Notes under the pieces: model-generated | Database searches by the model: none | Told to the model about the DNA's origin: nothing | What the model saw: the letters and a program-made list of their open reading frames with translations, nothing else | Shown: one piece after another, positions 1,596-43,798 of the stretch | Position numbering within the stretch: position 1 is the first letter of the stretch | Layout of the letters: every line of letters starts with the position of its first letter | Made by a program: the position numbers and the translations under genes | Assembly (NCBI RefSeq): GCF_041248615.1 | Contig: NZ_CP158426.1 | Direction: 5' to 3' (one strand) | DNA from: Escherichia coli | GTDB lineage: Bacteria; Pseudomonadota; Gammaproteobacteria; Enterobacterales; Enterobacteriaceae | Length of the DNA: 64,000 nucleotides

Positions 1596-3047
1596 TTAAA
1601 TGACGTACAGGTCGAGATACTCATTGACCGGCATCTGTTCCAGGCGAGCTCTGTCGAGAGAAACCTCCAGAATGCGCTGTTGCTGGCGAGTCGGGAACTG
1701 GCGCGCGAGATTGATTTTGAATTTATCGACCAGTTTCGGAATGCCATCCTGACGGCGGCGAGCATGACCAATGGGGTACTCCACCACCACTTCTTCAAAG
1801 CGCGTGCCGTCGGTGAACTCAAGGGTTATGGCATTGGCGATGGCACGTTTTTCCGGGTCGTGGTAGTCAGCGGTAAATGCCGGATCTTCAAAGCAATTGA
1901 TCTTCTCGCGCAGGGCGTCGATGCGTTTATCTTGCGCAACGTTGTCCTCGTAATCTGCCGCCGTTAAGCGTCCGAACAGCAGCGGGATCGCCACCATGTA
2001 CTGAATGCAGTGGTCGCGGTCAGCCGGGTTATTGAGCGGCCCTTTTTTGTCGATGATGCGAATACAGGCTTCGTGGGTGCGAATGGTCACTTTTTCGATA
2101 TCCGCCGCCGTTTTGCCTGCTGCCTGCATCTGTTCATAGAGCATCATCGCCGCTTCAACTGCCGTCTGGGAGTGGAACTCCGCCGGGAAGGAGATTTTGA
2201 ACAGCACATTTTCCATCACGTAAGAACCGTACGGACGCTGGAAGCGGAACGACTCACCTTTAAAGGAGACGTCGTAGAAGCCCCATACTGGCGCAGTCAG
2301 GGCTGACGGATAACCCATTTCGCCCGTTTTTGCCATCAATGCCAGACGTACCGCGCGGGAAGTGGCATCGCCCGCCGCCCAGGATTTACGCGTGCCGGTG
2401 TTCGGCGCATGGCGATAGGTGCGCAACGACTGACCGTCCACCCACGCCAGCGAAACGGCGTTGAGAATTTCCTCGCGGGTCAGGCCGAGCATTTCTGCAA
2501 CCACGGCGGTGGAAGCCACTTTCACTAACAGAACGTGGTCGAGGCCGACGCGGTTAAAGGAGTTTTCCAGCGCGATGCAGCCCTGAATTTCATGGGCTTT
2601 GATCATTCCGGTCAGCACCTGCTTCATGGTCAACGGCGCTTTGCCGCTAGCGACCGCGTTGCGCGAAAGCCAGTCCGCCGTTGCCAGAATGCCGCCGAGG
2701 TTGTCGGAAGGATGGCCCCACTCCGCCGCCAGCCAGGTATCGTTGAAATCGAGCCAACGGATCATCGCGCCGATGTTAAATGCCGCCTGGACGGGGTCGA
2801 GCTGGAACTGAGTTCCGGGGACGCGCACGCCGTTGGGTACGACGGTGCCAGGGACAATTGGCCCCAGCAGTTTTTTACAGGCCGGGTATTCGAGAGCTTC
2901 CAGACCGCAGCCGAGCGTGTCGAGCAGGCAGTAATGTGCGGTCTCGTAGGCCACTCTGGAGCTGATTTCGTAGTTCATCACGTAATCGACGATATCAACG
3001 ATTTCACGATCAAATTCCGGGCGGATGTTGTTGATTTGAGCTGACAT
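1596..3047 (-). CDS. prpD: 2-methylcitrate dehydratase
   Basis: 483-aa ORF, MmgE/PrpD-family sequence, position between prpC and prpE. Confidence 0.92.
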
Positions 3048-3080
3048 TGGGTACGTTTCCTTATTGTTATTCGTAGAGGT

Positions 3081-4250
3081 TTACTGGCGCTTATCCAGCG
3101 CGACAAACTGGCGGTCTTCCGGTCCAACATAATTGGCGGAAGGACGGATAATTTTGTTGTCCTGACGTTGTTCGATAATGTGCGCCGCCCAGCCGGTGAC
3201 GCGGGCGATAACAAACAGTGGGGTGAACATCTCGGTAGGAACGCCCATCATGTTGTAGGAAACAGCGGAGAACCAGTCGAGATTGGGGAACATCTTTTTG
3301 CTCTCCCACATCACTGTTTCCAGGCGATCGGCGATGTTGTACATCTTCAGCGAGCCGCCTTCCTGCGAGAGCTGCTTCGCCACGCGTTTGATCACCTGAT
3401 GACGCGGGTCGGCGATGGTATAAACCGGATGACCAAAACCAATGACCACTTCTTTGTTTTCCACCCGCTTGCGGATATCGGCTTCGGCTTCGTCCGGCGT
3501 TTCGTAGCGTTGCTGGATCTCCAGCGACACTTCATTCGCCCCGCCGTGCTTCGGCCCGCGCAGTGCACCAATCGCGCCAATAATCGCGGAATACATATCA
3601 GAGCCGGTGCCCGCAATCACCCGGCTGGTAAAGGTGGAGGCGTTAAACTCGTGTTCGGCGTACAGCACCAGCGAAATATGCATCGCCTTTTCCCAGCTTT
3701 GCGATGGCTTTTCGCCGTGCAGCAGATGCAGGAAGTGACCGCCGATGGAGTCGTCATCGGTTTCCGGCTGGATGCGTTCGCCGTTGTGGCTGTAGTGATA
3801 CCAGTAGAGAAGAATCGAGCTAAGTGACGCCAGCAGTTTGTCGGCAATATCCCGCGCACCAGATACAGTGTGCCCCTCTTTTTCCGGCAGTGTGCAGCCG
3901 AGCGCGGAAACGCCGGTGCGCATAACATCCATCGGGTGCGACGCCGCTGGTAAGGCTTCCAGCACAGTACGCACGTTAGCCGGTAAACCGCGCAGGGCTT
4001 TCAGTTTCGTTTTGTAGGCGGCGAGTTCGTCACGGGTCGGCAGTTTGCCGTGGATCAGCAGATGCGCCACTTCTTCAAATTCGCAATGTTCCGCCAGATC
4101 AAGAATGTCGTAGCCGCGGTAATGCAAATCATTGCCACTTTTACCCACGGTGCAGAGCGCCGTATTGCCCGCCGGAACGCCAGAAAGTGCCACCGATTTT
4201 TTCGGTTTAATGACATGGGTACTGTTTTGCAGGATCGTTGTGTCGCTCAT
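3081..4250 (-). CDS. prpC: 2-methylcitrate synthase
   Basis: 389-aa ORF, citrate-synthase family, between prpB and prpD. Confidence 0.92.
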
Positions 4251-4294
4251 ATTGTCCTCGTCATTTGTAGGGTCGAGATATTTTTCGTTGTGTT

Positions 4295-11072: not shown

Positions 11073-12029
11073 TTAAACCACCCGATCCAGCCCCAACATG
11101 CCGCGAGCCTGAATGAAACAGAGCAGCAACGTTCCCCATAAGGCCATCGTCAGGTAGGGGCTTATACCGAGAATATTGAAGCCGCTTTCAATAATTTGCA
11201 GAAGAAACAGCGCCAGCACCATACCAATTATCCGCCCGCTGCCGCCGTCCGGATTAACCCCGCCGAGTACTGCCGCGAGGATTGACACCAGCAAGTACGA
11301 TTCGCCATAAGAGGCCTTAGCCGAGTTGAGTTTCGACATCATCAAAAATGCCGCTACCGCACAAAGCAAGGCGGAAATGACATACACCCAAATCAGCACC
11401 CGACGAGTGTTAATGCCGGAGTAAAGTGTTGCTCGTTCGTTAGAACCAATCAGATAAATGGATTTACCGAGCGGCGTTTTCTCCAGCAATATCCACAGCC
11501 CTAGCGACACTGCGGTAAACAACCACATCGGTAGCGGAATACCGAACCACTGTGCATGATTCAACCACAGCACCCATGAGGGATAATTGGCAATGGCGCT
11601 ACCGCCTGTCACCAGAATATTTACCCCTTTGAGCAACGTCATCATCCCAAGCGTTGCAAGAATTGGCGACACTCGAATACCAGCAATCAATACGCCGTTA
11701 CATAAACCGATTATCACCGCCGCGCCAGCGCCCGCCAGCAGCGTAGCGACAACCGTAGCAATACCCGGTGGATACTGAGTCGCCACCCACGCCATCACCA
11801 GTGAACAGGCGTTAGCAGTGGCTATAATTGACAAGTTAATGCCACCGCAAAGCATGGTCACCGCCATAGCCAACGCCAGAATGCCCAGCACGGGCATTTG
11901 CGAAGCGACGGACTGGAAATTACTTATCGACCAGAAAATCTCCGGCATAGTAATGCTGAAGGCTGCAACAGTTAGCACCAGCAGGCCGATCAAGTAAAAC
12001 TCAACGTTGTTACGCCACGATTTTTTCAT
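11073..12029 (-). CDS. ABC transporter permease (CUT2 sugar-type)
   Basis: ORF 11073-12059; internal start MKKSWRNN at 12029 forms ATGA overlap with stop of upstream permease; polytopic membrane protein. Confidence 0.8.
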   Translation of the reverse strand: MKKSWRNNVEFYLIGLLVLTVAAFSITMPEIFWSISNFQSVASQMPVLGILALAMAVTMLCGGINLSIIATANACSLVMAWVATQYPPGIATVVATLLAGAGAAVIIGLCNGVLIAGIRVSPILATLGMMTLLKGVNILVTGGSAIANYPSWVLWLNHAQWFGIPLPMWLFTAVSLGLWILLEKTPLGKSIYLIGSNERATLYSGINTRRVLIWVYVISALLCAVAAFLMMSKLNSAKASYGESYLLVSILAAVLGGVNPDGGSGRIIGMVLALFLLQIIESGFNILGISPYLTMALWGTLLLCFIQARGMLGLDRVV

Positions 12030-12997
12030 AGCAGACTCCGGTTCTGATGCTGACTCCACGCCGTGGCACTAATGCTGGCAACGATGATGATGCCGGTGAT
12101 CAATGTTTGCCAGTAAGACGAGACTCCCAATAAATTTAGCCCGTTTTGCATCACTGCCAACAACACCACGCCGAGCAAAGTACCGGTTAACGTGCCGCGC
12201 CCGCCGAGCAAACTAGTGCCGCCAAGCACCACCGCAGCCAGTACTGTCAGCTCATAACCCAGAAGAGAATCGGGGGCGACAGTCATCACCGTCCACGACT
12301 GCACTACACCCGCAGCACCAGACATCAATCCCATATAGCCGTAGACGAAAAGTTGCAGTTTCAGCACGCTAAAGCCGATGCGACTGGCTGATTCGCGGTT
12401 CCCGCCAAGGGCATAAATTTTGCGCCCTACACTGGTGAAATTCATGATAAACGCTGTTAGCAGCACCACCGTAATCATGGCGATCAGCGGCAGACCAAGG
12501 CCATAGTCATAGCCATCAGCATCGGTGTACTTGAACAACATAACCCCCTGCTCAAACCACGGCGGAAAGTCGTACAGCCACACACCTTTACTCAACCATA
12601 ACAGCAGGCCATAGAAAATATTCAGCGTCGAGATAGTGATGATGATAGACGGCACCCGTAGGCGATTAACCAGTAAGGCGTTTATTAAGCCAAGTAAAAT
12701 GCCGATGCCGCCCGCCAGGGCAAACGCGACAGCAAAGTTGCCACCAATTTTTTGCAGCAACAGCACCATGCCGTATTGCGCAATGATGGTCATTGCCGGA
12801 AACGAAATATCAATCCCACCGGAAATTAACACCACAAACAAACCACAGGCGAGAATAGTCAACATGGCATAGTTATTGGCGAGATCGTACAAATTACCGA
12901 ATGTCAGAAACTCGTCGCTGCGCCAGGCAAGGCCAACAAACAGCACCACAATCAGTAATGCCAGCCAGAATTCATGGCGTTTTTTCAGTTCAGCCAT
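12026..12997 (-). CDS. ABC transporter permease (CUT2 sugar-type)
   Basis: 323-aa membrane ORF; start overlaps ATPase stop by 8 nt. Confidence 0.8.
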   Translation of the reverse strand: MAELKKRHEFWLALLIVVLFVGLAWRSDEFLTFGNLYDLANNYAMLTILACGLFVVLISGGIDISFPAMTIIAQYGMVLLLQKIGGNFAVAFALAGGIGILLGLINALLVNRLRVPSIIITISTLNIFYGLLLWLSKGVWLYDFPPWFEQGVMLFKYTDADGYDYGLGLPLIAMITVVLLTAFIMNFTSVGRKIYALGGNRESASRIGFSVLKLQLFVYGYMGLMSGAAGVVQSWTVMTVAPDSLLGYELTVLAAVVLGGTSLLGGRGTLTGTLLGVVLLAVMQNGLNLLGVSSYWQTLITGIIIVASISATAWSQHQNRSLL

Positions 12998-14489
12998 TTA
13001 CCACCTCCGCAATCCTGGCCTGAGAACTGCTGTCAGGCAGGAAGCTATGGGTGATCTGACCTTTTTGCATTACCAAAATCCGGTGGCTTTGATACCACGC
13101 TTCTTCAATTTCATCGCAGATCATCAATACCGCAATGCCATGAGCCGCCAGATCGCTGATAATGCCGTATATTCCTGCTTTGTTGGCGATATCAACACCG
13201 ACAGTCGGGCTATCGAGAATCAACAGTCGTGGCCCAATCGCCAGCCATTTGGCGATCGATACTCGCTGCGCGTTACCCCCGGAAAGCGTATTCACCGGGA
13301 GATGTGGGTCAGAGACTTTGATGGTCAATGCCTTGATTAGCCTGTCCACCAGGTCACGCACTTTAGCTTCACTCAGAAAGCCGAAGCGATCTTTTACCTT
13401 GTGAAAAACAGTGCTAATGATGTTGTCTTCAATAGATTGCGCCATCACCAAACCGCGCGACATGCGATCTTCCGAAACATAACCAATACCGTGGCGGATG
13501 GCGTCCTGGTTACTATGCAGTGTAACCGGCTGACCGTTGATGAGGATCTCACCAGCATCCGGTCGGGTCATACCAAACAGACTCAGACATAATTCCGTGC
13601 GCCCCGCACCAAGCAGGCCAACAATCGACACCACTTCGCCCGCTTCCACCCGCAAGTTAATATTTTGATATTCCCCATGACGACTTAAATTACGCACCTC
13701 CAGCACCGGGGGGCTGGATTTTCCCTGCCACAACTCTCGTACCTGATATTCGAACTCCTGGCCGGTCATCAGAAAACTGAGTTGTTTTGTGGTCATCTCT
13801 GCGGCCGGAAAGGTCCCGACCAGCTCACCATCTTTCAGCACTGAAATACGGTCGGAAACTTCCATCACTTCTTCCAGACGATGACTGACGAAGACCACGC
13901 AGATCCCGCGTTCCCGCAATTGATGCACCACCTGTAATAACCCTTGCACTTCCTGATGGGTCAGCGAAGCGGTTGGTTCATCCATCACGATCAACCGTGC
14001 GTCCTGCGCCAGTGCACGGCAAATTGCCACCAGCTGACAGCGGGCAATTGAAAGCTCAGAAACGAGCGTATCCAGTGGCAATGTGACGTTAATACTGGTC
14101 ATTGCCGCCTGCGCCACCTCACGCAGACGACGGCGGTTAACAAACAGACCGTGGTGATAGTGGTTCACGGCGATATTCTCCCAGACACTCAGGTTAGGAA
14201 ATAAAGAGAGGTCCTGATAAATCACCTGAATCCCCTGCGCCACCGAAGCGGCGGGTGTCAGCTTTGACCAGTTTTTCCCACCAAGCGTAATTTCCGCCCC
14301 CTCATCCGGGCGATAAACACCGGACATAATTTTAATCAACGTCGATTTACCACAGCCGTTTTGCCCGGCAAGGCAGTGCACCTCACCCGACATAAAGTCG
14401 AGAGAAACATCGCGCAGCGCTCGCGTGGCATGAAACGTTTTGTTGATATGACGAAGGGAAAGGAAGGTTTCCATAGCATCCCCTGGCAA
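12990..14489 (-). CDS. ABC transporter ATP-binding protein with two fused ABC domains
   Basis: 499 aa; Walker A GQNGCGKST and second P-loop GLLGAGRTE; signature LSGGNAQRV; alternative start METFLSL at 14474. Confidence 0.85.
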   Translation of the reverse strand: MPGDAMETFLSLRHINKTFHATRALRDVSLDFMSGEVHCLAGQNGCGKSTLIKIMSGVYRPDEGAEITLGGKNWSKLTPAASVAQGIQVIYQDLSLFPNLSVWENIAVNHYHHGLFVNRRRLREVAQAAMTSINVTLPLDTLVSELSIARCQLVAICRALAQDARLIVMDEPTASLTHQEVQGLLQVVHQLRERGICVVFVSHRLEEVMEVSDRISVLKDGELVGTFPAAEMTTKQLSFLMTGQEFEYQVRELWQGKSSPPVLEVRNLSRHGEYQNINLRVEAGEVVSIVGLLGAGRTELCLSLFGMTRPDAGEILINGQPVTLHSNQDAIRHGIGYVSEDRMSRGLVMAQSIEDNIISTVFHKVKDRFGFLSEAKVRDLVDRLIKALTIKVSDPHLPVNTLSGGNAQRVSIAKWLAIGPRLLILDSPTVGVDIANKAGIYGIISDLAAHGIAVLMICDEIEEAWYQSHRILVMQKGQITHSFLPDSSSQARIAEVVNG

Positions 14490-14522
14490 TAAGAATCGGG
14501 GCTTTCGCCCCGAAGAAATGGA

Positions 14523-15509
14523 TTAATAAAGTGAGTCGATATTGTCTTTGTTGACCAGTAATACCTTATGGAAACGGATAATTCGCTTATCCATATCTAC
14601 GTCGGCCTTACCGAGATTCTCCATTTCTAATCCAGGTTTGATCTCTTCACCCTTCAGCAACGTGCTGGCGACGGCCGCGAGTGCGTAACCTGCAGAGGCC
14701 GGATCGTAAGTAATCCCTTCGGTGATATCACCACTTTTAATCAGTGATGCCGCCTGTGAAGGGATCATCATGCCATAGACTGCGACTTTATTTTTCGCCC
14801 GTTTCTCTTTCACTGCACGTCCCGCGCCAATCGGACCGTTTGAACCAAAGGAGACAACCGCTTTCAAGTCAGGATAGGTTTTCATGAGGTCCAGTGTGGT
14901 ACGACGTGAGTCATCCACACTCTCGGCAACCGGCATGCGGCGGGTAACTTCATGCATATCCGGGTAATGCTCTTTCTGGTATTTCACCAGCAAGTCAGCC
15001 CATAAGTTATGCTGCGGCACGGTCAAACTACCCACGTAAATCACATAGCCGCCCTTGCCACCCATGCGTTTCGCCATATGCTCAACATATTCAGCGGCAA
15101 ATTTTTCGTTATCAATGATTTCGATATCCCAGTTAGCACTTGGCTGACCGGGGGATTCGTTGGTCAGAACCACAATTCCGGCATCTCGCGCTTTTTTGAA
15201 TACCGGTTCCAGCACGTTGGCATCGTTTGGCACAATTGTAATTGCATTAACCTTACGGGCGATTAAATCCTCAATAATTTTAACCTGTTGCGGAGCATCA
15301 GTACTTGAAGGCCCCACCTGTGACGCATTAACACCAAAGGCTTTACCCGCCTCAACCACACCTTCGCCCATGCGATTAAACCACGGCATACCATCGACTT
15401 TAGAGATATTCACCACGACTTTTTCCGCTGCCTGGAGCGGCGCAGAAATTAGCGCAGCGCCTAATAACAGCGAAGACACCATATTGATAACAAAACGTTT
15501 ATTCATCAT
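14523..15509 (-). CDS. periplasmic solute-binding protein, LsrB-like
   Basis: 328 aa with signal peptide (ending LQA-AEK); resembles recalled LsrB along its length including C-terminal KDNID motif. Confidence 0.75.
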   Translation of the reverse strand: MMNKRFVINMVSSLLLGAALISAPLQAAEKVVVNISKVDGMPWFNRMGEGVVEAGKAFGVNASQVGPSSTDAPQQVKIIEDLIARKVNAITIVPNDANVLEPVFKKARDAGIVVLTNESPGQPSANWDIEIIDNEKFAAEYVEHMAKRMGGKGGYVIYVGSLTVPQHNLWADLLVKYQKEHYPDMHEVTRRMPVAESVDDSRRTTLDLMKTYPDLKAVVSFGSNGPIGAGRAVKEKRAKNKVAVYGMMIPSQAASLIKSGDITEGITYDPASAGYALAAVASTLLKGEEIKPGLEMENLGKADVDMDKRIIRFHKVLLVNKDNIDSLY

Positions 15510-15759
15510 TTCAGCCTCATTGCAGGGTAGTCAGGAAGTGTTCGCCCAAATTAGCGCGCTGGAGAGAATAAGAATTTTCGAATATTTTTATGCAGAATAA
15601 ACAGCCCTATTTCAGGCAGCTATTAAAAATTTGGTTATAAATATGGACAAAACGGGCAGTAACAATAAGTGTGACAATCATCACGTAAAAAATAGCAAAA
15701 TAAACAAAATTAGCGATACTTTATGTTTGTGAGCTTATTTCGCGTAGAAAAATAGTTAT

Positions 15760-16170
15760 CTACACAACGTCAATAAGGGCATATTCTTCAAAGATAACGT
15801 CCATTTCGGGTGAATAGCATCCTTCTGCCTGGAAAAAACGACGGTGTTCATTACGCCAATATTCAAGACTGAGGTCACCTTCACCTTCCTTACGGGCAAG
15901 CTCCGCGGTGACATCAGAAAAGCGCAGTAAATGCAGGCCAATCACTCTGATAACACAGACAGGCTCACCACGGCTATTTTCTACAATCTTATACTCACCA
16001 ATCAGCGGAAATGCGTTGTCTTCAATACATCCCGCCAGCGAACCACAGGAAGCTGTTTTAACACCAGTCGCAATCAACGTTGCGAGGTGATCGGCCAACG
16101 CTGCTGAATCGCCAAAAGTACAAAAGGAAGCATGGGGATATTTTTGTGAGATTTTTTCTTTTATGGTCAT
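15760..16170 (-). CDS. ASCH-domain (PUA-like) protein
   Basis: ORF 15760-16200; likely start MTIKEK at 16170; GxKT motif (ATGVKTAS) typical of ASCH domains. Confidence 0.55.
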   Translation of the reverse strand: MTIKEKISQKYPHASFCTFGDSAALADHLATLIATGVKTASCGSLAGCIEDNAFPLIGEYKIVENSRGEPVCVIRVIGLHLLRFSDVTAELARKEGEGDLSLEYWRNEHRRFFQAEGCYSPEMDVIFEEYALIDVV

Positions 16171-16468
16171 GAGAATATTTTCGCGATTACGGAAAAACAA
16201 ATCACATCTTAATTACTGTTGATAACCATCAGCAAGAGTATCATTGGTTTTTCGATACTGAATCTTTTTTATCCGAAGCAGGTCACATTTATGGCCTGAT
16301 AAATACCTTTGTTAAAACTCACTTTTGTGTATTTCTCTCAAATAATCCCCTGGAAATTATGCCGGGAGATTATAAAGTTCAGGATCATTCATTAACAAAC
16401 CATTCCCGCCCCACTCCCTGGGGCTTAAATCTCTTACGATTCACCGTTGCAGACATATCAAATGCGCA

Positions 16469-27155: not shown

Positions 27156-29189
27156 TCACGCGTCCGGGAACATCACGCTATGGCCCGGCGCTTCACGATG
27201 GAGATGGATAAAGTTAAGGTGCCGCTCGTACTGATCGAGAATATCGGTGATCACCTGCTCTTTGCTGTAGTCCATCAGGTCGTTGCCCTGGCTGCCTTCT
27301 AACAGGAAAGTTTCCAGCCGGTAGTAGGTCGATTTACCGCTACGTGCGCGGTAGGTAAAGCCCGGCACCGAATATTGCTGCGGCCAAATCTGATAGACAA
27401 AGTTTTGCTCTTCGCCCATATGCACCAACAAATCCAGATGCCCCAACTGTTGTCCCTCTTCCGGCGGCAGGCTTTTTAGCTCCACGTACGCGCCGCGCAA
27501 CCGCAGCTCCTGCGCCACTTCTTCCATTGCCGGGTAACAGACCGTCTCCATCATCTGTTTAGTGTAACGCGTGCCCGGATAATTCATCAGGCGCGAGAGA
27601 CGTTTTTTCCAGCTCAGGCGATCCTGAAGCCCCAGCGGTCGCGGCGCGGTATCACGGTTGGCACTTTCACGGCGGTAATCTTCTACCTTCAGAGATTTAT
27701 ACAACCCCGCCATCACGAAGAAAATCACAAAGCTGAACGGCAGCCCCATGATTACCGTGGTGTTTTGCAGCGCGGATATCCCGTTGGTCATCAGCATGCC
27801 GAGCGTCAGCAGGCCAATCGCCACCGACCAGAAGACGCGCAGCCAGCCGGGGGCGTCGCTGTTGATATCTTTAAGCTGCGAGGTGAAATTCCCCAGCACC
27901 AGCGCCCCGGAGTCCGCCGAGGTCACATAAAACAGCAGGCCAGTAATGGTGGCGACGGAGGCGCTAAAGGTAAACGCCGGATACTGCGCCAGCAGGCTGT
28001 AGAAGCCGCGCTCCGGATGGACCATCGCTTCCTCGGCAAATGCCGCGCCGCCGTGGATGATTTCATACAGCGCGCTATTGCCGAACACCGAGAGCCATAA
28101 CAGCGTGAAGGTAAACGGAATAATCAACGTGCCCAGCACGAACTGGCGAATGGTACGCCCACGCGAGATACGCGCCAGGAACAGGCCGACAAACGGCGAC
28201 CATGCCACCCACCATGCCCAGAAGAAGAGCGTCCAGTTATTCATCCACTCAACCGGACGGTCGAAGGCAAAACTGTTGAGCGTCATGCCCATAAAGCGAT
28301 TCACATAGTCGCCAACGTTCAGCACCAGCGCATTAAGCAGGAACGAGGTGTCGCCCATAAACAGCACGAACAGGATCAACCCCAGCGCCAGCGCAACGTT
28401 GAGTTCCGATAACACACGAATGCCCTTATCGACACCGGAGGTGACAGAGATCGTGGCGATGATCACCGACAAGGCGATCAGTGCCGCTTTCGCCGCCATT
28501 GAATCGGGAATATCAAACAGTACGCTCAAGCCATAGTTAAGCTGCACCACACCGATACCGAGCGTAGTGGCAATACCGAAGATGGTGCCGATTACCGCTG
28601 CAATATCCACTGAATGACCAATCGGCCCGTTAATCCGTTTACCGAAGATCGGGTACAGCGCCGAGCGGATGGTGAGCGGCAAATTATAACGATAGCTAAA
28701 GTATCCGAGCGCCATGCCCATCAGCGCATACATCGACCAGCCGGTTAAGCCGTAGTGAAACAGCGTCCAGACCATCGCCTGACGCGCGGCCTCAATCGTC
28801 TGACCCGCGCCTTCCGGCGGCTGCATATACTGCGTTACCGGTTCGGCTACGGAGAAGAACATCAGGTCGATACCGATCCCGGCAGCAAACAGCATCGCCG
28901 CCCAGCTCAGCAGGCTGAATTCCGGTTTGGATTGTTCTGGCCCGAGCTTCACCGAACCAAAACGCGAACAAGCGATGCAGACCACAAAGACAATATAGAG
29001 CGTTGCCGCCAGCAGATAGTACCAACCGAAGGTTTTAGAAACCCAGTCCAGCGTGCGGCCAATCCACAGGGCCGAGAAGTCGCGAAACAGGATCGTTGTC
29101 AGGGAAAACAACAAAATCAGTCCGGCGGAAGTGTAAAACACCACCGGATTGATTTTGTCCTTTTCCCTGCTGTGTGAAAGGTCTGTCAT
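27156..29189 (-). CDS. betT: choline transporter (BCCT family)
   Basis: 677-aa polytopic ORF; divergent from betIBA. Confidence 0.9.
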   Translation of the reverse strand: MTDLSHSREKDKINPVVFYTSAGLILLFSLTTILFRDFSALWIGRTLDWVSKTFGWYYLLAATLYIVFVVCIACSRFGSVKLGPEQSKPEFSLLSWAAMLFAAGIGIDLMFFSVAEPVTQYMQPPEGAGQTIEAARQAMVWTLFHYGLTGWSMYALMGMALGYFSYRYNLPLTIRSALYPIFGKRINGPIGHSVDIAAVIGTIFGIATTLGIGVVQLNYGLSVLFDIPDSMAAKAALIALSVIIATISVTSGVDKGIRVLSELNVALALGLILFVLFMGDTSFLLNALVLNVGDYVNRFMGMTLNSFAFDRPVEWMNNWTLFFWAWWVAWSPFVGLFLARISRGRTIRQFVLGTLIIPFTFTLLWLSVFGNSALYEIIHGGAAFAEEAMVHPERGFYSLLAQYPAFTFSASVATITGLLFYVTSADSGALVLGNFTSQLKDINSDAPGWLRVFWSVAIGLLTLGMLMTNGISALQNTTVIMGLPFSFVIFFVMAGLYKSLKVEDYRRESANRDTAPRPLGLQDRLSWKKRLSRLMNYPGTRYTKQMMETVCYPAMEEVAQELRLRGAYVELKSLPPEEGQQLGHLDLLVHMGEEQNFVYQIWPQQYSVPGFTYRARSGKSTYYRLETFLLEGSQGNDLMDYSKEQVITDILDQYERHLNFIHLHREAPGHSVMFPDA

Positions 29190-29273: not shown

Positions 29274-29317
29274 ACCGCTTTAATAGATAAACAACGCTGA
29301 TGAATGGAGTGGCGAAA

Positions 29318-29905
29318 ATGCCCAAATTGGGGATGCAGTCGATCCGGCGCAGACAACTGATCGACGCCACGCTGGAAGCAATAAATGAAGTGGGCATGCA
29401 CGATGCAACGATCGCGCAGATCGCCCGCCGTGCAGGCGTTTCTACGGGGATCATCAGCCACTATTTCAGGGACAAAAATGGTCTGCTGGAAGCAACCATG
29501 CGCGATATCACCAGTCAGCTGCGTGACGCGGTTTTGAATCGATTACATGCACTTCCGCAGGGCAGTGCAGAGCAGCGATTACAGGCGATTGTTGACGGGA
29601 ATTTCGATGAAACGCAGGTCAGTAATGCTGCGATGAAAGCCTGGTTGGCGTTTTGGGCCAGCAGTATGCATCAGCCGATGCTTTACCGTTTGCAGCAGGT
29701 GAGCAGCCGCCGCTTGTTGTCGAATCTGGTGAGCGAATTTCACCGCGAGTTACCGCGCCAACAGGCACAGGAAGCGGGCTACGGCCTTGCCGCGCTGATT
29801 GACGGATTATGGCTGCGCGCGGCACTGAGCGGCAAACCGCTGGATAAACCTCTCGCACACTCGCTGACCCGTCACTTTATTACTCAGCATTTACCCACCG
29901 ATTAA
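29318..29905 (+). CDS. betI: TetR-family repressor of choline-glycine betaine genes
   Basis: ORF 29300-29905; start MPKLGMQ at 29318 gives 195 aa; TetR HTH. Confidence 0.88.
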
Positions 29906-29918
29906 CCGAGGAGACGTG

Positions 29919-31391
29919 ATGTCCCGAATGGCAGAACAGCAGCTTTATATACATGGTGGTTATACCTCCGCCACCAGCGGTCGCACCTTCGAGACCATTA
30001 ACCCGGCCAACGGTAACGTGCTGGCGACCGTGCAGGCCGCCGGGCGTGAGGATGTCGATCGCGCCGTGAAGAGTGCCCAACAGGGGCAAAAAATCTGGGC
30101 GGCGATGACCGCTATGGAACGCTCGCGTATTCTGCGTCGGGCCGTTGATATTCTGCGTGAACGCAATAACGAACTCGCAAAACTGGAAACCCTCGACACC
30201 GGAAAAGCGTATTCGGAAACCTCAACCGTCGATATCGTTACCGGCGCGGACGTGCTCGAGTACTACGCCGGGCTGATCCCGTCGCTGGAAGGCAGCCAGA
30301 TCCCATTGCGTGAGACGTCATTTGTCTATACCCGCCGCGAACCGCTGGGCGTAGTGGCAGGGATTGGCGCATGGAACTACCCGATCCAGATTGCCCTGTG
30401 GAAATCCGCCCCGGCGCTGGCGGCAGGCAACGCGATGATTTTCAAACCGAGCGAAGTCACCCCGCTTACCGCGTTAAAGCTGGCCGAAATTTACAGCGAA
30501 GCGGGCCTGCCGGACGGCGTATTTAACGTGCTGCCGGGCGTAGGTGCGGAAACCGGGCAGTATCTGACCGAGCATCCGGGCATTGCCAAAGTGTCATTTA
30601 CCGGCGGTGTCGCCAGCGGCAAAAAAGTGATGGCTAACTCGGCGGCTTCCTCCCTGAAAGAAGTGACCATGGAGCTGGGCGGTAAATCACCGCTGATCGT
30701 TTTCGACGATGCGGATCTCGATCTCGCCGCTGATATCGCCATGATGGCGAACTTCTTCAGCTCCGGTCAGGTGTGTACCAACGGCACCCGCGTGTTTATT
30801 CCGGCGAAATGCAAAGCCGCATTTGAACAAAAGATTCTGGCGCGCGTTGAGCGCATTCGCGCGGGCGACGTTTTCGATCCGCAAACTAACTTCGGCCCGC
30901 TGGTCAGCTTCCCGCATCGCGATAACGTGCTGCGTTACATCGCCAAAGGCAAAGAGGAAGGCGCGCGCGTACTGTGCGGCGGCGATGTATTGAAAGGCGA
31001 TGGCTTCGATAACGGCGCATGGGTTGCACCGACCGTGTTCACCGATTGCCGCGACGAAATGACCATCGTGCGCGAAGAGATCTTCGGTCCGGTGATGTCG
31101 CTTCTCACTTATGAATCTGAGGACGAAGTGATTCGCCGCGCCAATGATACCGACTACGGCCTGGCGGCGGGCATCGTGACGGCGGACCTGAACCGCGCGC
31201 ATCGCGTCATTCATCAGCTGGAAGCGGGTATTTGCTGGATCAACACCTGGGGCGAATCCCCGGCAGAGATGCCCGTTGGCGGCTACAAACACTCCGGCAT
31301 TGGTCGCGAGAACGGCGTGATGACGCTCCAGAGTTACACCCAGGTGAAGTCCATCCAGGTTGAGATGGCTAAATTCCAGTCCATATTCTAA
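29919..31391 (+). CDS. betB: betaine aldehyde dehydrogenase
   Basis: 490 aa; aldehyde dehydrogenase motifs (catalytic Cys in [20 protein letters not shown]). Confidence 0.92.
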
Positions 31392-31404
31392 CCAGGAGGT
31401 TTAT

Positions 31405-33075
31405 TTGCAATTTGACTACATCATTATTGGTGCCGGCTCAGCCGGCAACGTTCTCGCTACCCGTCTGACTGAAGATCCGAATACCTCCGTGCTGCTGCTT
31501 GAAGCGGGCGGCCCGGACTATCGCTTTGACTTCCGCACCCAGATGCCCGCAGCGCTGGCGTTCCCGCTACAGGGTAAACGCTACAACTGGGCCTATGAAA
31601 CGGAACCTGAACCGTTTATGAATAACCGCCGCATGGAGTGCGGACGCGGTAAAGGTCTGGGTGGATCGTCGCTGATCAACGGCATGTGTTACATCCGTGG
31701 CAATGCGCTGGATCTCGATAACTGGGCGAAAGAACCCGGCCTGGAACACTGGAGCTACCTCGATTGCCTGCCCTACTATCGGAAGGCCGAGACGCGCGAT
31801 ATTGGTGAAAACGACTACCACGGCGGCGACGGCCCGGTGAGCGTCACCACCTCCAAACCCGGCGTCAATCCGCTGTTTGAGGCGATGATTGAAGCGGGCG
31901 TGCAGGCAGGCTACCCGCGCACGGACGATCTCAACGGCTATCAGCAGGAAGGTTTTGGCCCGATGGATCGCACCGTCACGCCGCAGGGTCGTCGCGCCAG
32001 TACCGCGCGCGGTTATCTCGATCAGGCCAAATCGCGCCCTAACCTGACCATTCGTACTCACGCCATGACCGATCATATCATTTTTGACGGCAAACGCGCG
32101 GTGGGCGTCGAGTGGCTGGAAGGCGACAGCACCATTCCAACCCGCGCGACAGCGAATAAAGAGGTGCTGTTATGTGCAGGTGCGATCGCCTCTCCGCAGA
32201 TCCTGCAACGTTCCGGCGTGGGTAGCGCTGAACTGCTGGCGGAGTTTGATATTCCGCTGGTGCATGATTTACCCGGCGTCGGCGAAAATCTTCAGGATCA
32301 CCTGGAGATGTACCTGCAATATGAGTGCAAAGAACCGGTTTCCCTCTACCCTGCCCTGCAGTGGTGGAATCAGCCGAAAATCGGTGCGGAGTGGCTGTTT
32401 GGCGGCACCGGCGTTGGTGCCAGCAACCACTTTGAAGCAGGCGGATTTATTCGCAGCCGTGAGGAATTTGCGTGGCCGAATATTCAGTACCATTTCCTGC
32501 CAGTGGCGATTAACTATAACGGCTCGAACGCAGTGAAAGAGCACGGCTTCCAGTGCCACGTCGGATCGATGCGCTCGCCAAGCCGTGGGCATGTGCGGAT
32601 TAAATCCCGCGACCCGCACCAGCATCCAGCGATTCTGTTTAACTACATGTCGCACGAGCAGGACTGGCAGGAGTTCCGCGACGCAATTCGCATCACCCGG
32701 GAGATCATGCATCAACCGGCGCTGGATCAGTATCGTGGCCGCGAAATCAGCCCCGGTGTCGAATGCCAGACGGATGAGCAGCTCGATGAGTTCGTGCGTA
32801 ACCACGCCGAAACCGCCTTCCACCCGTGCGGTACCTGCAAAATGGGTTATGACGAGATGGCAGTGGTTGACGCCGAAGGCCGCGTACACGGGCTGGAAGG
32901 CCTGCGCGTGGTAGATGCGTCAATTATGCCGCAGATTATCACCGGCAATTTGAACGCCACGACTATTATGATTGGCGAGAAAATGGCGGATATGATTCGC
33001 GGGAAGGATGCGTTGCCGAGGAGCACGGCGGGATATTATGTGGCAAATGGGATGCCGGTGAGAGCGAAAAAATGA
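31405..33075 (+). CDS. betA: choline dehydrogenase (GMC oxidoreductase)
   Basis: TTG start at 31405 with AGGAGG SD 6 nt upstream; N-terminal FAD fold [11 protein letters not shown]; 556 aa. Confidence 0.9.
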
Positions 33076-42467: not shown

Positions 42468-42478
42468 TGGATTTGCCC

Positions 42479-43384
42479 CTATATTTCCAGACACCTGTTA
42501 TCACTTAACCCATTACTGGCCTGCTGCCGCAGATATTCCCGTGGCGAGCGATAACCCAGTGCACTATGCGGATGCCATTCGTTATAATGCTCGAACGCCT
42601 CTGCAAGGTTCTTTGCTGCCGTTAACCCGTCTGGTTTAGGCATGATACTGATGTAGTCACGCTTTATCGTTTTCACGAAGCTCTCTGCTATGCCGTTACT
42701 CTCCGGACTCCGCACCGCCGTGTTCTTCGGTTCAAGCCCCAATATCCGGGCAAACTGCCGTGTTTCATTAGCCCGGTAGCATGAACCATTATCCGTCAGC
42801 CACTCTACTGGAGACGCCGGAAGCTCGTTGCCGAAGCGGCGTTCCACCGCTCCCAGCATGACGTCCTGTACTGTTTCACTGTCGAAGCCGCCCGTAGTGA
42901 CTGCCCAGTGCAGTGCCTCACGGTCACAGCAGTCCAGCGCGAACGTGACTCGCAGTTTTTCTCCGTTATCACAGCGGAACTCGAACCCGTCAGAGCACCA
43001 TCGTTGATTGCTTTCTTTCACGGCCACTTTGCCAGTATGTGCCCGTTTCGATGGCGGTACAGCGGTTTTTCGCTCAAGCAACAGCGCATTCTGGCGCATG
43101 ATCCGGTAAACACGTTTGGCATTGATCGCAGGCGTACCATCAAGTTCGGCCTGTCTGCGAAGCAGCGCCCATACCCGACGATAACCATACGTGGGCAGCT
43201 CTCCGATAACATGGTGTATACGGAGAAGCACATCCGTATCATCTGAGTGACGGCTGCGGCGACCATCTTTCCAGTCATCGGTTCGTCTGAGAATTACGTG
43301 CAACTGCGCACGCGACACCCGGAGACAACGGCTGACTAAGCTTACTCCCCATCCCCGGGCAATAAGGGCGCGTGCGCTATCCAC
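42479..43384 (-). CDS. insD: IS2 transposase OrfB (InsD)
   Basis: 301 aa, recognised IS2 InsD sequence ([30 protein letters not shown]...). Confidence 0.9.
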
Positions 43385-43707
43385 TTTTTTGCACGCCCGT
43401 ATTCAACGGCTTCTTTAAGGAGTTCATTTTCCATCGTTTTTTTGCCGAGCAGGCGCTGGAGTTCTTTAATCTGCTTCATGGCAGCAGCAAGTTCAGAGGC
43501 AGGAACGACCTGCTCTCCTGCGGCCACAGCAGTAAGACTTCCCTCCTGGTATTGCTTGCGCCAGAGAAATAACTGGCTGGCTGCCACACCGTGTTGCCGG
43601 GCAACAAGGGAGACCTTCATTCCCGGTTCAAAACTCTGCTGAACAATAGCGATCTTTTCCTGTGTAGTACGCCGTCTGCGTTTCTCCGGTCCTAAGACAT
43701 CAATCAT
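43342..43707 (-). CDS. insC: IS2 OrfA (InsC)
   Basis: ORF 43342-43752; conserved start [13 protein letters not shown] at 43707 gives 121 aa; overlaps insD as in IS3-family frameshift arrangement. Confidence 0.88.
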
Positions 43708-43798
43708 CTGCTCTCCAATGACTAGTCTAAAAACTAGTATTAAGACTATCACTTATTTAAGTGATATTGGTTGTCTGGAGATTCATGGGGCCAGTCTA

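Follow-up and report, generated by a model that had tools for sequence, protein, structure and literature searches.

A TTG codon behind betB as the almost certain start of betA in a non-K-12 Escherichia coli chromosome

The closest described counterpart of the gene considered here is betA of E. coli K-12 MG1655 (b0311, NP_414845.1). It is annotated at 325577..327247 on the complement strand, has a length of 1,671 nt and belongs to the arrangement betT / betI-betB-betA, in which the operon is divergent from betT. The DNA analyzed in this work, referred to as the window, is a 64-kb segment of a non-K-12 E. coli chromosome that includes betT-betIBA. The K-12 arrangement is reproduced there by the open reading frames (ORFs) 27156..29189 (minus strand), 29300..29905, 29916..31391 and 31360..33075. 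The K-12 gene opens on caggaggtttatTTGcaattt and its start reads caggaggtttatTTGcaatttgac, and the window is identical in both. Also shared are the betB-betA junction TAA-CC-AGGAGG-TTTAT-TTG-CAATTTGAC, the TTG start, the 13-nt gap and the length of 1,671 nt. The window nevertheless carries a different allele, with 134 differences in the 3,157 nt of betB-betA, of which 117 affect third codon positions and none the start site. Simple collinearity of the window with K-12 was rejected, as three additional segments and one small deletion were found. The TTG start of betA is already known and ordinary, being the existing E. coli reference annotation. TTG, which belongs with ATG and GTG to the canonical bacterial start codons, opens about 3% of E. 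coli genes and is read as methionine; in reporter assays AUG, GUG and UUG initiate at 10-100% of AUG (bioRxiv 10.1101/063800).

A second close counterpart is the betA gene of Klebsiella pneumoniae (WP_004142489.1, plasmid pKLP00155_2). Its annotated start is a TTG at the homologous codon, its intergenic gap is again 13 nt, and the N-terminus that follows the initiator is the same. It differs from the E. coli gene in the Shine-Dalgarno (SD) sequence, which is GGGAGG instead of AGGAGG, and in the spacer, which is TTTTT instead of TTTAT.

The features of the junction in the window all lie on the plus strand. The betB coding sequence (betaine-aldehyde dehydrogenase) was mapped from the RefSeq betB of strain H2, at locus positions 1670-3142, to 29919..31391, and its tail consists of the codons GTT GAG ATG GCT AAA TTC CAG TCC ATA TTC TAA, with the TAA stop read directly at 31389-31391. 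The stop is followed by CC, AGGAGG (31394-31399), TTTAT and TTG (31405-31407). The SD sequence AGGAGG(T) at 31394..31400, identified by reading and by duplex energy, offers 7 nt of complementarity to the 3' end of 16S rRNA. It begins 2 nt past the betB stop and is separated from the TTG by a spacer of 4-5 nt (the 5 nt TTTAT when counted from AGGAGG). An initial annotation made from the sequence had placed AGGAGG 6 nt upstream of the TTG. The motif is present as described, but the spacer is 5 nt, and a value of six is obtained only as 31405 minus 31399.

The TTG initiation codon of betA was assigned to 31405..31407 from annotation, from INRI-seq and from homologous codons elsewhere. The coding sequence for choline dehydrogenase that it opens extends over 31405..33075, as indicated by family profiles and a database match. 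Its 1,671 nt encode 556 amino acids followed by a TGA stop, and the gap that separates it from betB comprises the 13 nt 31392-31404; the protein length and the gap given in the initial annotation were both confirmed by reading. The codons 3' of the TTG are CAA TTT GAC TAC ATC ATT ATT GGT GCC GGC TCA GCC GGC. They lead into the dinucleotide-binding motif GAGSAG (GxGxxG) of the FAD Rossmann fold, read directly at residues 9-14 (31429..31446). The codon walk agrees in this respect with the earlier statement that the FAD-binding N-terminus follows directly after TTG 31405. The BetA protein of the window presumably oxidizes choline to betaine aldehyde, given its near-identity to the characterized K-12 enzyme.

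The reading frame of betA is open for some distance 5' of this codon. It is closed on that side by an in-frame TGA at 31345-31347 (direct reading). The first NTG codon past this stop is a TTG at 31360..31362, found by the codon walk and in the ORF list. This codon defines the longest ORF in the betA frame of the mechanical list (31360..33075, 571 amino acids, TTG as first codon), which shares 32 nt with the 3' end of betB. The observation that the ORF track opens at 31360 inside betB was borne out by direct reading. The description of that codon as an upstream ATG overlapping betB was not: 31360 is a TTG, and the sole nearby ATG, located at 31365..31367 by the codon walk, belongs to betB, where it encodes methionine, and is in frame +2 with respect to betA.

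Translation of betA starts almost certainly at TTG 31405, giving a 556-residue choline dehydrogenase, and 31360-31404 is not betA coding sequence. This start, which the initial annotation had favored, is supported by annotation, by comparison among genera, by family profiles, by the pattern of substitutions, by SD energy and by in vitro INRI-seq. In the proposed mechanism the near-perfect SD sequence AGGAGGT (31394-31400) would place the 30S subunit, and TTG 31405 would be read as formyl-methionine. The 45 nt from 31360 to 31405 represent the betB tail and the 13-nt spacer, seen in another frame. The strong SD sequence probably offsets the weaker TTG start codon, and the 13-nt gap may let ribosomes that finish betB aid initiation on betA. 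A naive longest-ORF call, by comparison, adds 15 spurious residues before the FAD-binding fold and invents a 32-nt overlap between betB and betA. The correct start codon is relevant to proteomics databases, to expression constructs and to counts of overlapping genes. The E. coli reference annotation needs no change; it is the ATG of the initial annotation that is corrected to TTG.

Existing annotation places the start of betA at 31405 consistently. In the RefSeq record of strain H2, the betA start at locus position 3156 corresponds to window position 31405 and the betB end to 31391. The RefSeq betA genes of AST85, Seattle 1946, AZ153, FDAARGOS_1290 and DG341 start at the same TTG, although these RefSeq (PGAP) calls are propagated by models and are mutually non-independent. 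A start at 31360 is used in none of the annotated records inspected. The exact 556-residue protein was found on 555 public contigs under the name "choline dehydrogenase [Escherichia coli]", and 562-residue alleles of the same cluster share its N-terminus and differ at the C-terminus. The 571-residue form that a start at 31360 would produce had no match among about 15 billion public proteins.

The junction is also nearly uniform within the species. A 301-nt query spanning it matched 5,179 of 5,426 complete E. coli genomes, and every match fell under "betB | betA". With a 45-nt query (31383-31427, TTG central), zero internal mismatches were found in 5,149 of 5,183 E. coli records; the remaining 34 records, with an internal mismatch, were counted and their individual junctions left uninspected. 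Versions of this 45-mer in which ATG or GTG replaced TTG had no match in E. coli. On genomes carrying TTG such queries offer megablast no 28-nt word to seed, so that only genuine variants would match; one that had another mismatch close by would be missed.

The boundaries of the protein family fall at the same place. Profile libraries were scanned with the 571-residue translation, in which residue 16 corresponds to TTG 31405. The betA equivalog TIGR01810 scored 1028.1 bits (cut-off 732.1), with profile positions 1-532 of 532 aligned to residues 19-552, and NF002550 scored 1000.2 bits (cut-off 605) over residues 17-570. The match to PF00732 (GMC_oxred_N, E = 3.4e-63) begins with profile position 1 at residue 18 of the 571-residue form, which is residue 3 of the 556-residue form, and PF05199 (GMC_oxred_C) was matched with E = 2.9e-41. 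The profiles begin 1-3 residues after TTG 31405. Residues 1-15 of the translation are matched by no family profile, which counts against 31360 as the start.

Comparison with other genera further separates the two TTG codons. A tblastn search of a plasmid collection with the N-terminal 165 residues found betA in many genera, and eight of these loci, from eight genera, were aligned on the codon homologous to 31405. In Pantoea and Duffyella (Erwiniaceae) and in Proteus (Morganellaceae), betA starts at exactly the homologous codon, with a GAGGA-type SD sequence ahead of it and with EFDYI or VYDYI after it, followed by GAGSAG. These genes differ from that of E. coli in having an ATG start and in carrying in-frame stops ahead of it, on the near side of betB, at -18, -6 and -48; an extension back into betB is therefore impossible there. 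The intergenic gaps in Pantoea and Duffyella are longer than in E. coli, at about 23-28 nt. The betA starts of Caballeronia, Acinetobacter, Methylobacterium and Sphaerotilus lie 3-10 codons further upstream, always past the betB stop.

The comparison with Klebsiella bears on the upstream codon from both sides. A TTG at -45 is present in Klebsiella as well, which at first sight favors a start at 31360. This TTG lies within the conserved betB codons GTT GAG, and it is conserved because of betB coding. Two changes in the Klebsiella betB tail, in addition to those in the SD sequence and the spacer, alter residues of the hypothetical extension. Across 31360-31404 Klebsiella differs from E. coli at four sites, each of them a first or second codon position in the extension frame, and all four changes are non-synonymous (L to V, S to F, Q to R, Y to F). 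All six changes in the first 25 codons of betA, in contrast, are synonymous and at third positions (Fisher exact p = 0.0048 for the contrast across TTG 31405). It is thus at TTG 31405 that non-coding-like change gives way to a coding signature. Within E. coli the betB tail is strongly conserved and its synonymous sites are unusually so; taken alone, a dual-coding overlap would predict the same. That conservation reaches well 5' of the in-frame stop at 31345, however, and Klebsiella alters the residues of the supposed extension.

The ribosome-binding signals differ markedly between the two codons. The duplex of the anti-SD sequence with the region ahead of TTG 31405 has an energy of -11.0 kcal/mol; a pairing at least as strong is found for just 0.3% of the window's 954 TTGs on the plus strand. 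For TTG 31360 the standard 9-nt anti-SD sequence gives just -3.8 kcal/mol, a value matched by 19.5% of the window TTGs. A better pairing is available to this codon in AGGTGA (31342-31347), which reaches -8.4 kcal/mol with an extended anti-SD sequence, but this element is 11-13 nt away from it. With the family profiles, the annotated records and the substitution pattern also set against it, a betA of 571 residues that starts at TTG 31360 and overlaps betB by 32 nt is extremely improbable.

Other candidate start codons and signals near the junction were also considered. The ATC and ATT codons at 31420-31428 were rejected as starts, as a protein begun there would lack the first strand of the Rossmann fold and codons of this type initiate at 1-2% of AUG (bioRxiv 10.1101/063800). 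A structured RNA element was likewise rejected as an explanation. Folding of the junction was no better than that of shuffled sequences (z = -1.27 for 31355-31455 and +0.38 for 31260-31430), giving no sign of regulatory RNA structure, and no Rfam family reached its gathering score anywhere in the 64-kb window.

Experimental data on initiation at betA come from INRI-seq, an in vitro form of retapamulin ribosome profiling that uses a synthetic E. coli transcriptome (PMC9825163). In its Table S2 the betA start (b0311, 327247, minus strand) is listed with 104.8, 89.4, 84.6, 69.7 and 91.3 CPM and "peak identified TRUE" (PMC9825163). To count as a peak there, a signal had to reach 5 CPM or more within 12-18 nt of the start in two or more of five replicates, and the betA peak was present in five of five (PMC9825163). 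The out-of-frame ATT at 31403 was rejected as the source of this peak, as it belongs to the codon class that initiates at 1-2% and opens only a short out-of-frame ORF. The in vivo Ribo-RET entry for betA in the same table is 0/FALSE (PMC9825163); the betA operon was probably not induced under the growth conditions of that experiment. Initiation peaks in ribosome profiling had been proposed in the initial annotation as a check of the start; in vitro such a peak is recorded at the TTG, and in vivo the value is 0. The available TRAINSPOTTER N-terminomics tables contain no entry for b0311 or P17444, and neither the Ribo-RET values nor these tables yielded in vivo evidence for the BetA N-terminus. 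A literature search on the start codon of betA or choline dehydrogenase and on b0311 returned no relevant paper.

The design of INRI-seq leaves room for a model in which both TTG codons are used, the 556-residue protein being the main product and a 571-residue protein from 31360 a minor isoform. The betA transcript of the assay opens 30 nt 5' of the TTG, so that the TTG at -45 is absent from the construct and cannot be excluded by the assay (PMC9825163). Alternative in-frame starts are moreover widespread in E. coli, with 918 putative alternative sites reported by INRI-seq (PMC9825163). In the part of the INRI-seq supplement that was available, betA appears in files 5, 7 and 9 and in none of the others, among which the table of alternative sites would be expected; this argues weakly against a second site. 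All of the evidence against TTG 31360 as the sole start holds equally against its use as a minor one. The extension lacks conservation at the protein level, and ribosomes translating betB would cross 31360 and occlude a weak internal site. The use of both codons is accordingly very improbable, and TTG 31405 is retained as the single start of betA.

Given a start at TTG 31405, the question arises of how ribosomes reach it. It has been considered that initiation there might depend mainly on termination and reinitiation by ribosomes arriving from betB, that is, on obligate translational coupling. Coupling of betB and betA in some degree is plausible because the SD sequence starts only 2 nt after the betB stop, within a gap of 13 nt. 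Same-strand gene pairs spaced by about +10 nt form a class of their own in E. coli (PMC10666635), which likewise favors coupling. Among seven E. coli alleles, moreover, only one invariant tract of betB-betA is longer than the one that contains the junction. Published distance series indicate that reinitiation drops steeply with distance, being variable at +14 nt and nearly lost at +38 nt (PMC10666635). In INRI-seq, strong initiation was observed on a transcript that has only 30 nt ahead of the TTG and on which betB is not translated (PMC9825163), so that coupling is unnecessary in vitro. The z scores of -1.27 and +0.38 also indicate that no stable structure hides the site. A 7-nt SD sequence is sufficient for de novo initiation. 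A start at TTG 31405 that is reached mainly by obligate coupling is therefore considered unlikely, and direct initiation at this codon is preferred.

Variation around the junction was examined among seven E. coli alleles, which have 331 variable sites in the 3,136 nt of betB-betA. TTG 31405 lies inside an invariant tract of 87 nt (31344-31430), the second longest in betB-betA among these alleles. At the 3' end of betB (31270-31404, roughly 135 nt) variation is reduced about 3-fold, both within E. coli and relative to Klebsiella. This reduction would be in line with purifying selection of the kind that acts generally on translation-initiation regions. A more specific proposal is that the weak TTG and the near-perfect SD sequence together form a selected device that sets the level of expression, with 31270-31404 as part of the initiation or regulatory region of betA. 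This proposal is doubtful; if it were true, the region might fix the ratio of BetA to BetB synthesis or be bound by a regulator. The initiation codon was TTG in every E. coli record checked, and it is ATG in the Erwiniaceae and in Proteus. The motif AGGAGG is itself depleted in the 64-kb window, where it occurs seven times on both strands compared with 16.6 expected from shuffled sequences.

Nucleotide variation has been found to be about 3-fold lower across the 3' end of betB and the start of betA (window 31270-31430) than in the rest of the two genes. Among seven E. coli alleles, this interval showed 2-4 variable sites per 90 nt, compared with ~13 elsewhere. The same pattern was observed against Klebsiella, where 3-5 differences per 90 nt were found in the interval and ~15 outside it. 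Of the two longest invariant tracts of betB-betA, one measures 128 nt and the other 87 nt; the betA start lies inside the shorter one. At the betB start, a 128-nt run (29919-30046) is identical between the window and K-12 (the MG1655 reference). Neither a stable RNA fold nor an Rfam family accounts for the reduced variation. A perfect GC hairpin, GCCGGC-UCA-GCCGGC, is present in all folds computed, at 31431-31447 inside betA. This hairpin is simply the codons (GCC GGC TCA GCC GGC) of GAGSAG, the GxGxxG FAD-binding motif at BetA residues 9-14.

The mechanical longest-ORF track of the window places the betA start at 31360, upstream of the TTG at 31405. Its start for betI is 29300 versus the annotated 29318, and for betB it is a GTG at 29916 versus the annotated 29919. 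The over-extension of betI and betB is the same longest-ORF artefact seen at betA. At the other end of the gene, BetA also differs in length among E. coli lineages. The window and K-12 encode a 556-aa form, whereas a 562-aa form was found in strain AST85 and in an O157:H7 record of the protein cluster. The two forms share the same N-terminus, and the longer one carries six additional residues at its C-terminal end. The site of this difference is the betA 3' end (window ~33060-33075); the corresponding betA interval in L019, a retrieved locus, is 1856-3544.

Several other segments of the window differ from K-12. Two have no counterpart in the compared K-12 intervals. The first (~11145-16407), located between the yahK and yahJ regions, encodes on the minus strand an ABC transporter set composed of two BPD_transp_2 permeases, an ABC_tran ATPase and a Peripla_BP_4 binding protein. 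The second (~49207-55438) encodes two aldo/keto reductases, two LysR-type regulators, an alpha/beta hydrolase and an Oxidored_FMN (old-yellow-enzyme-like) oxidoreductase. Conversely, the window strain lacks, at 4265-4290, ~420 bp that lie between prpB and prpC in K-12 (K-12 349578-349996). The region at ~42470-47779 is marked by an intact 1,416-aa ORF (44405..48655, minus strand), whereas K-12 carries at this position the eaeH pseudogene, interrupted by IS3. In E. coli strain H2, the annotation of this region includes fdeC, an inverse autotransporter adhesin, so that the window ORF is a candidate fdeC.
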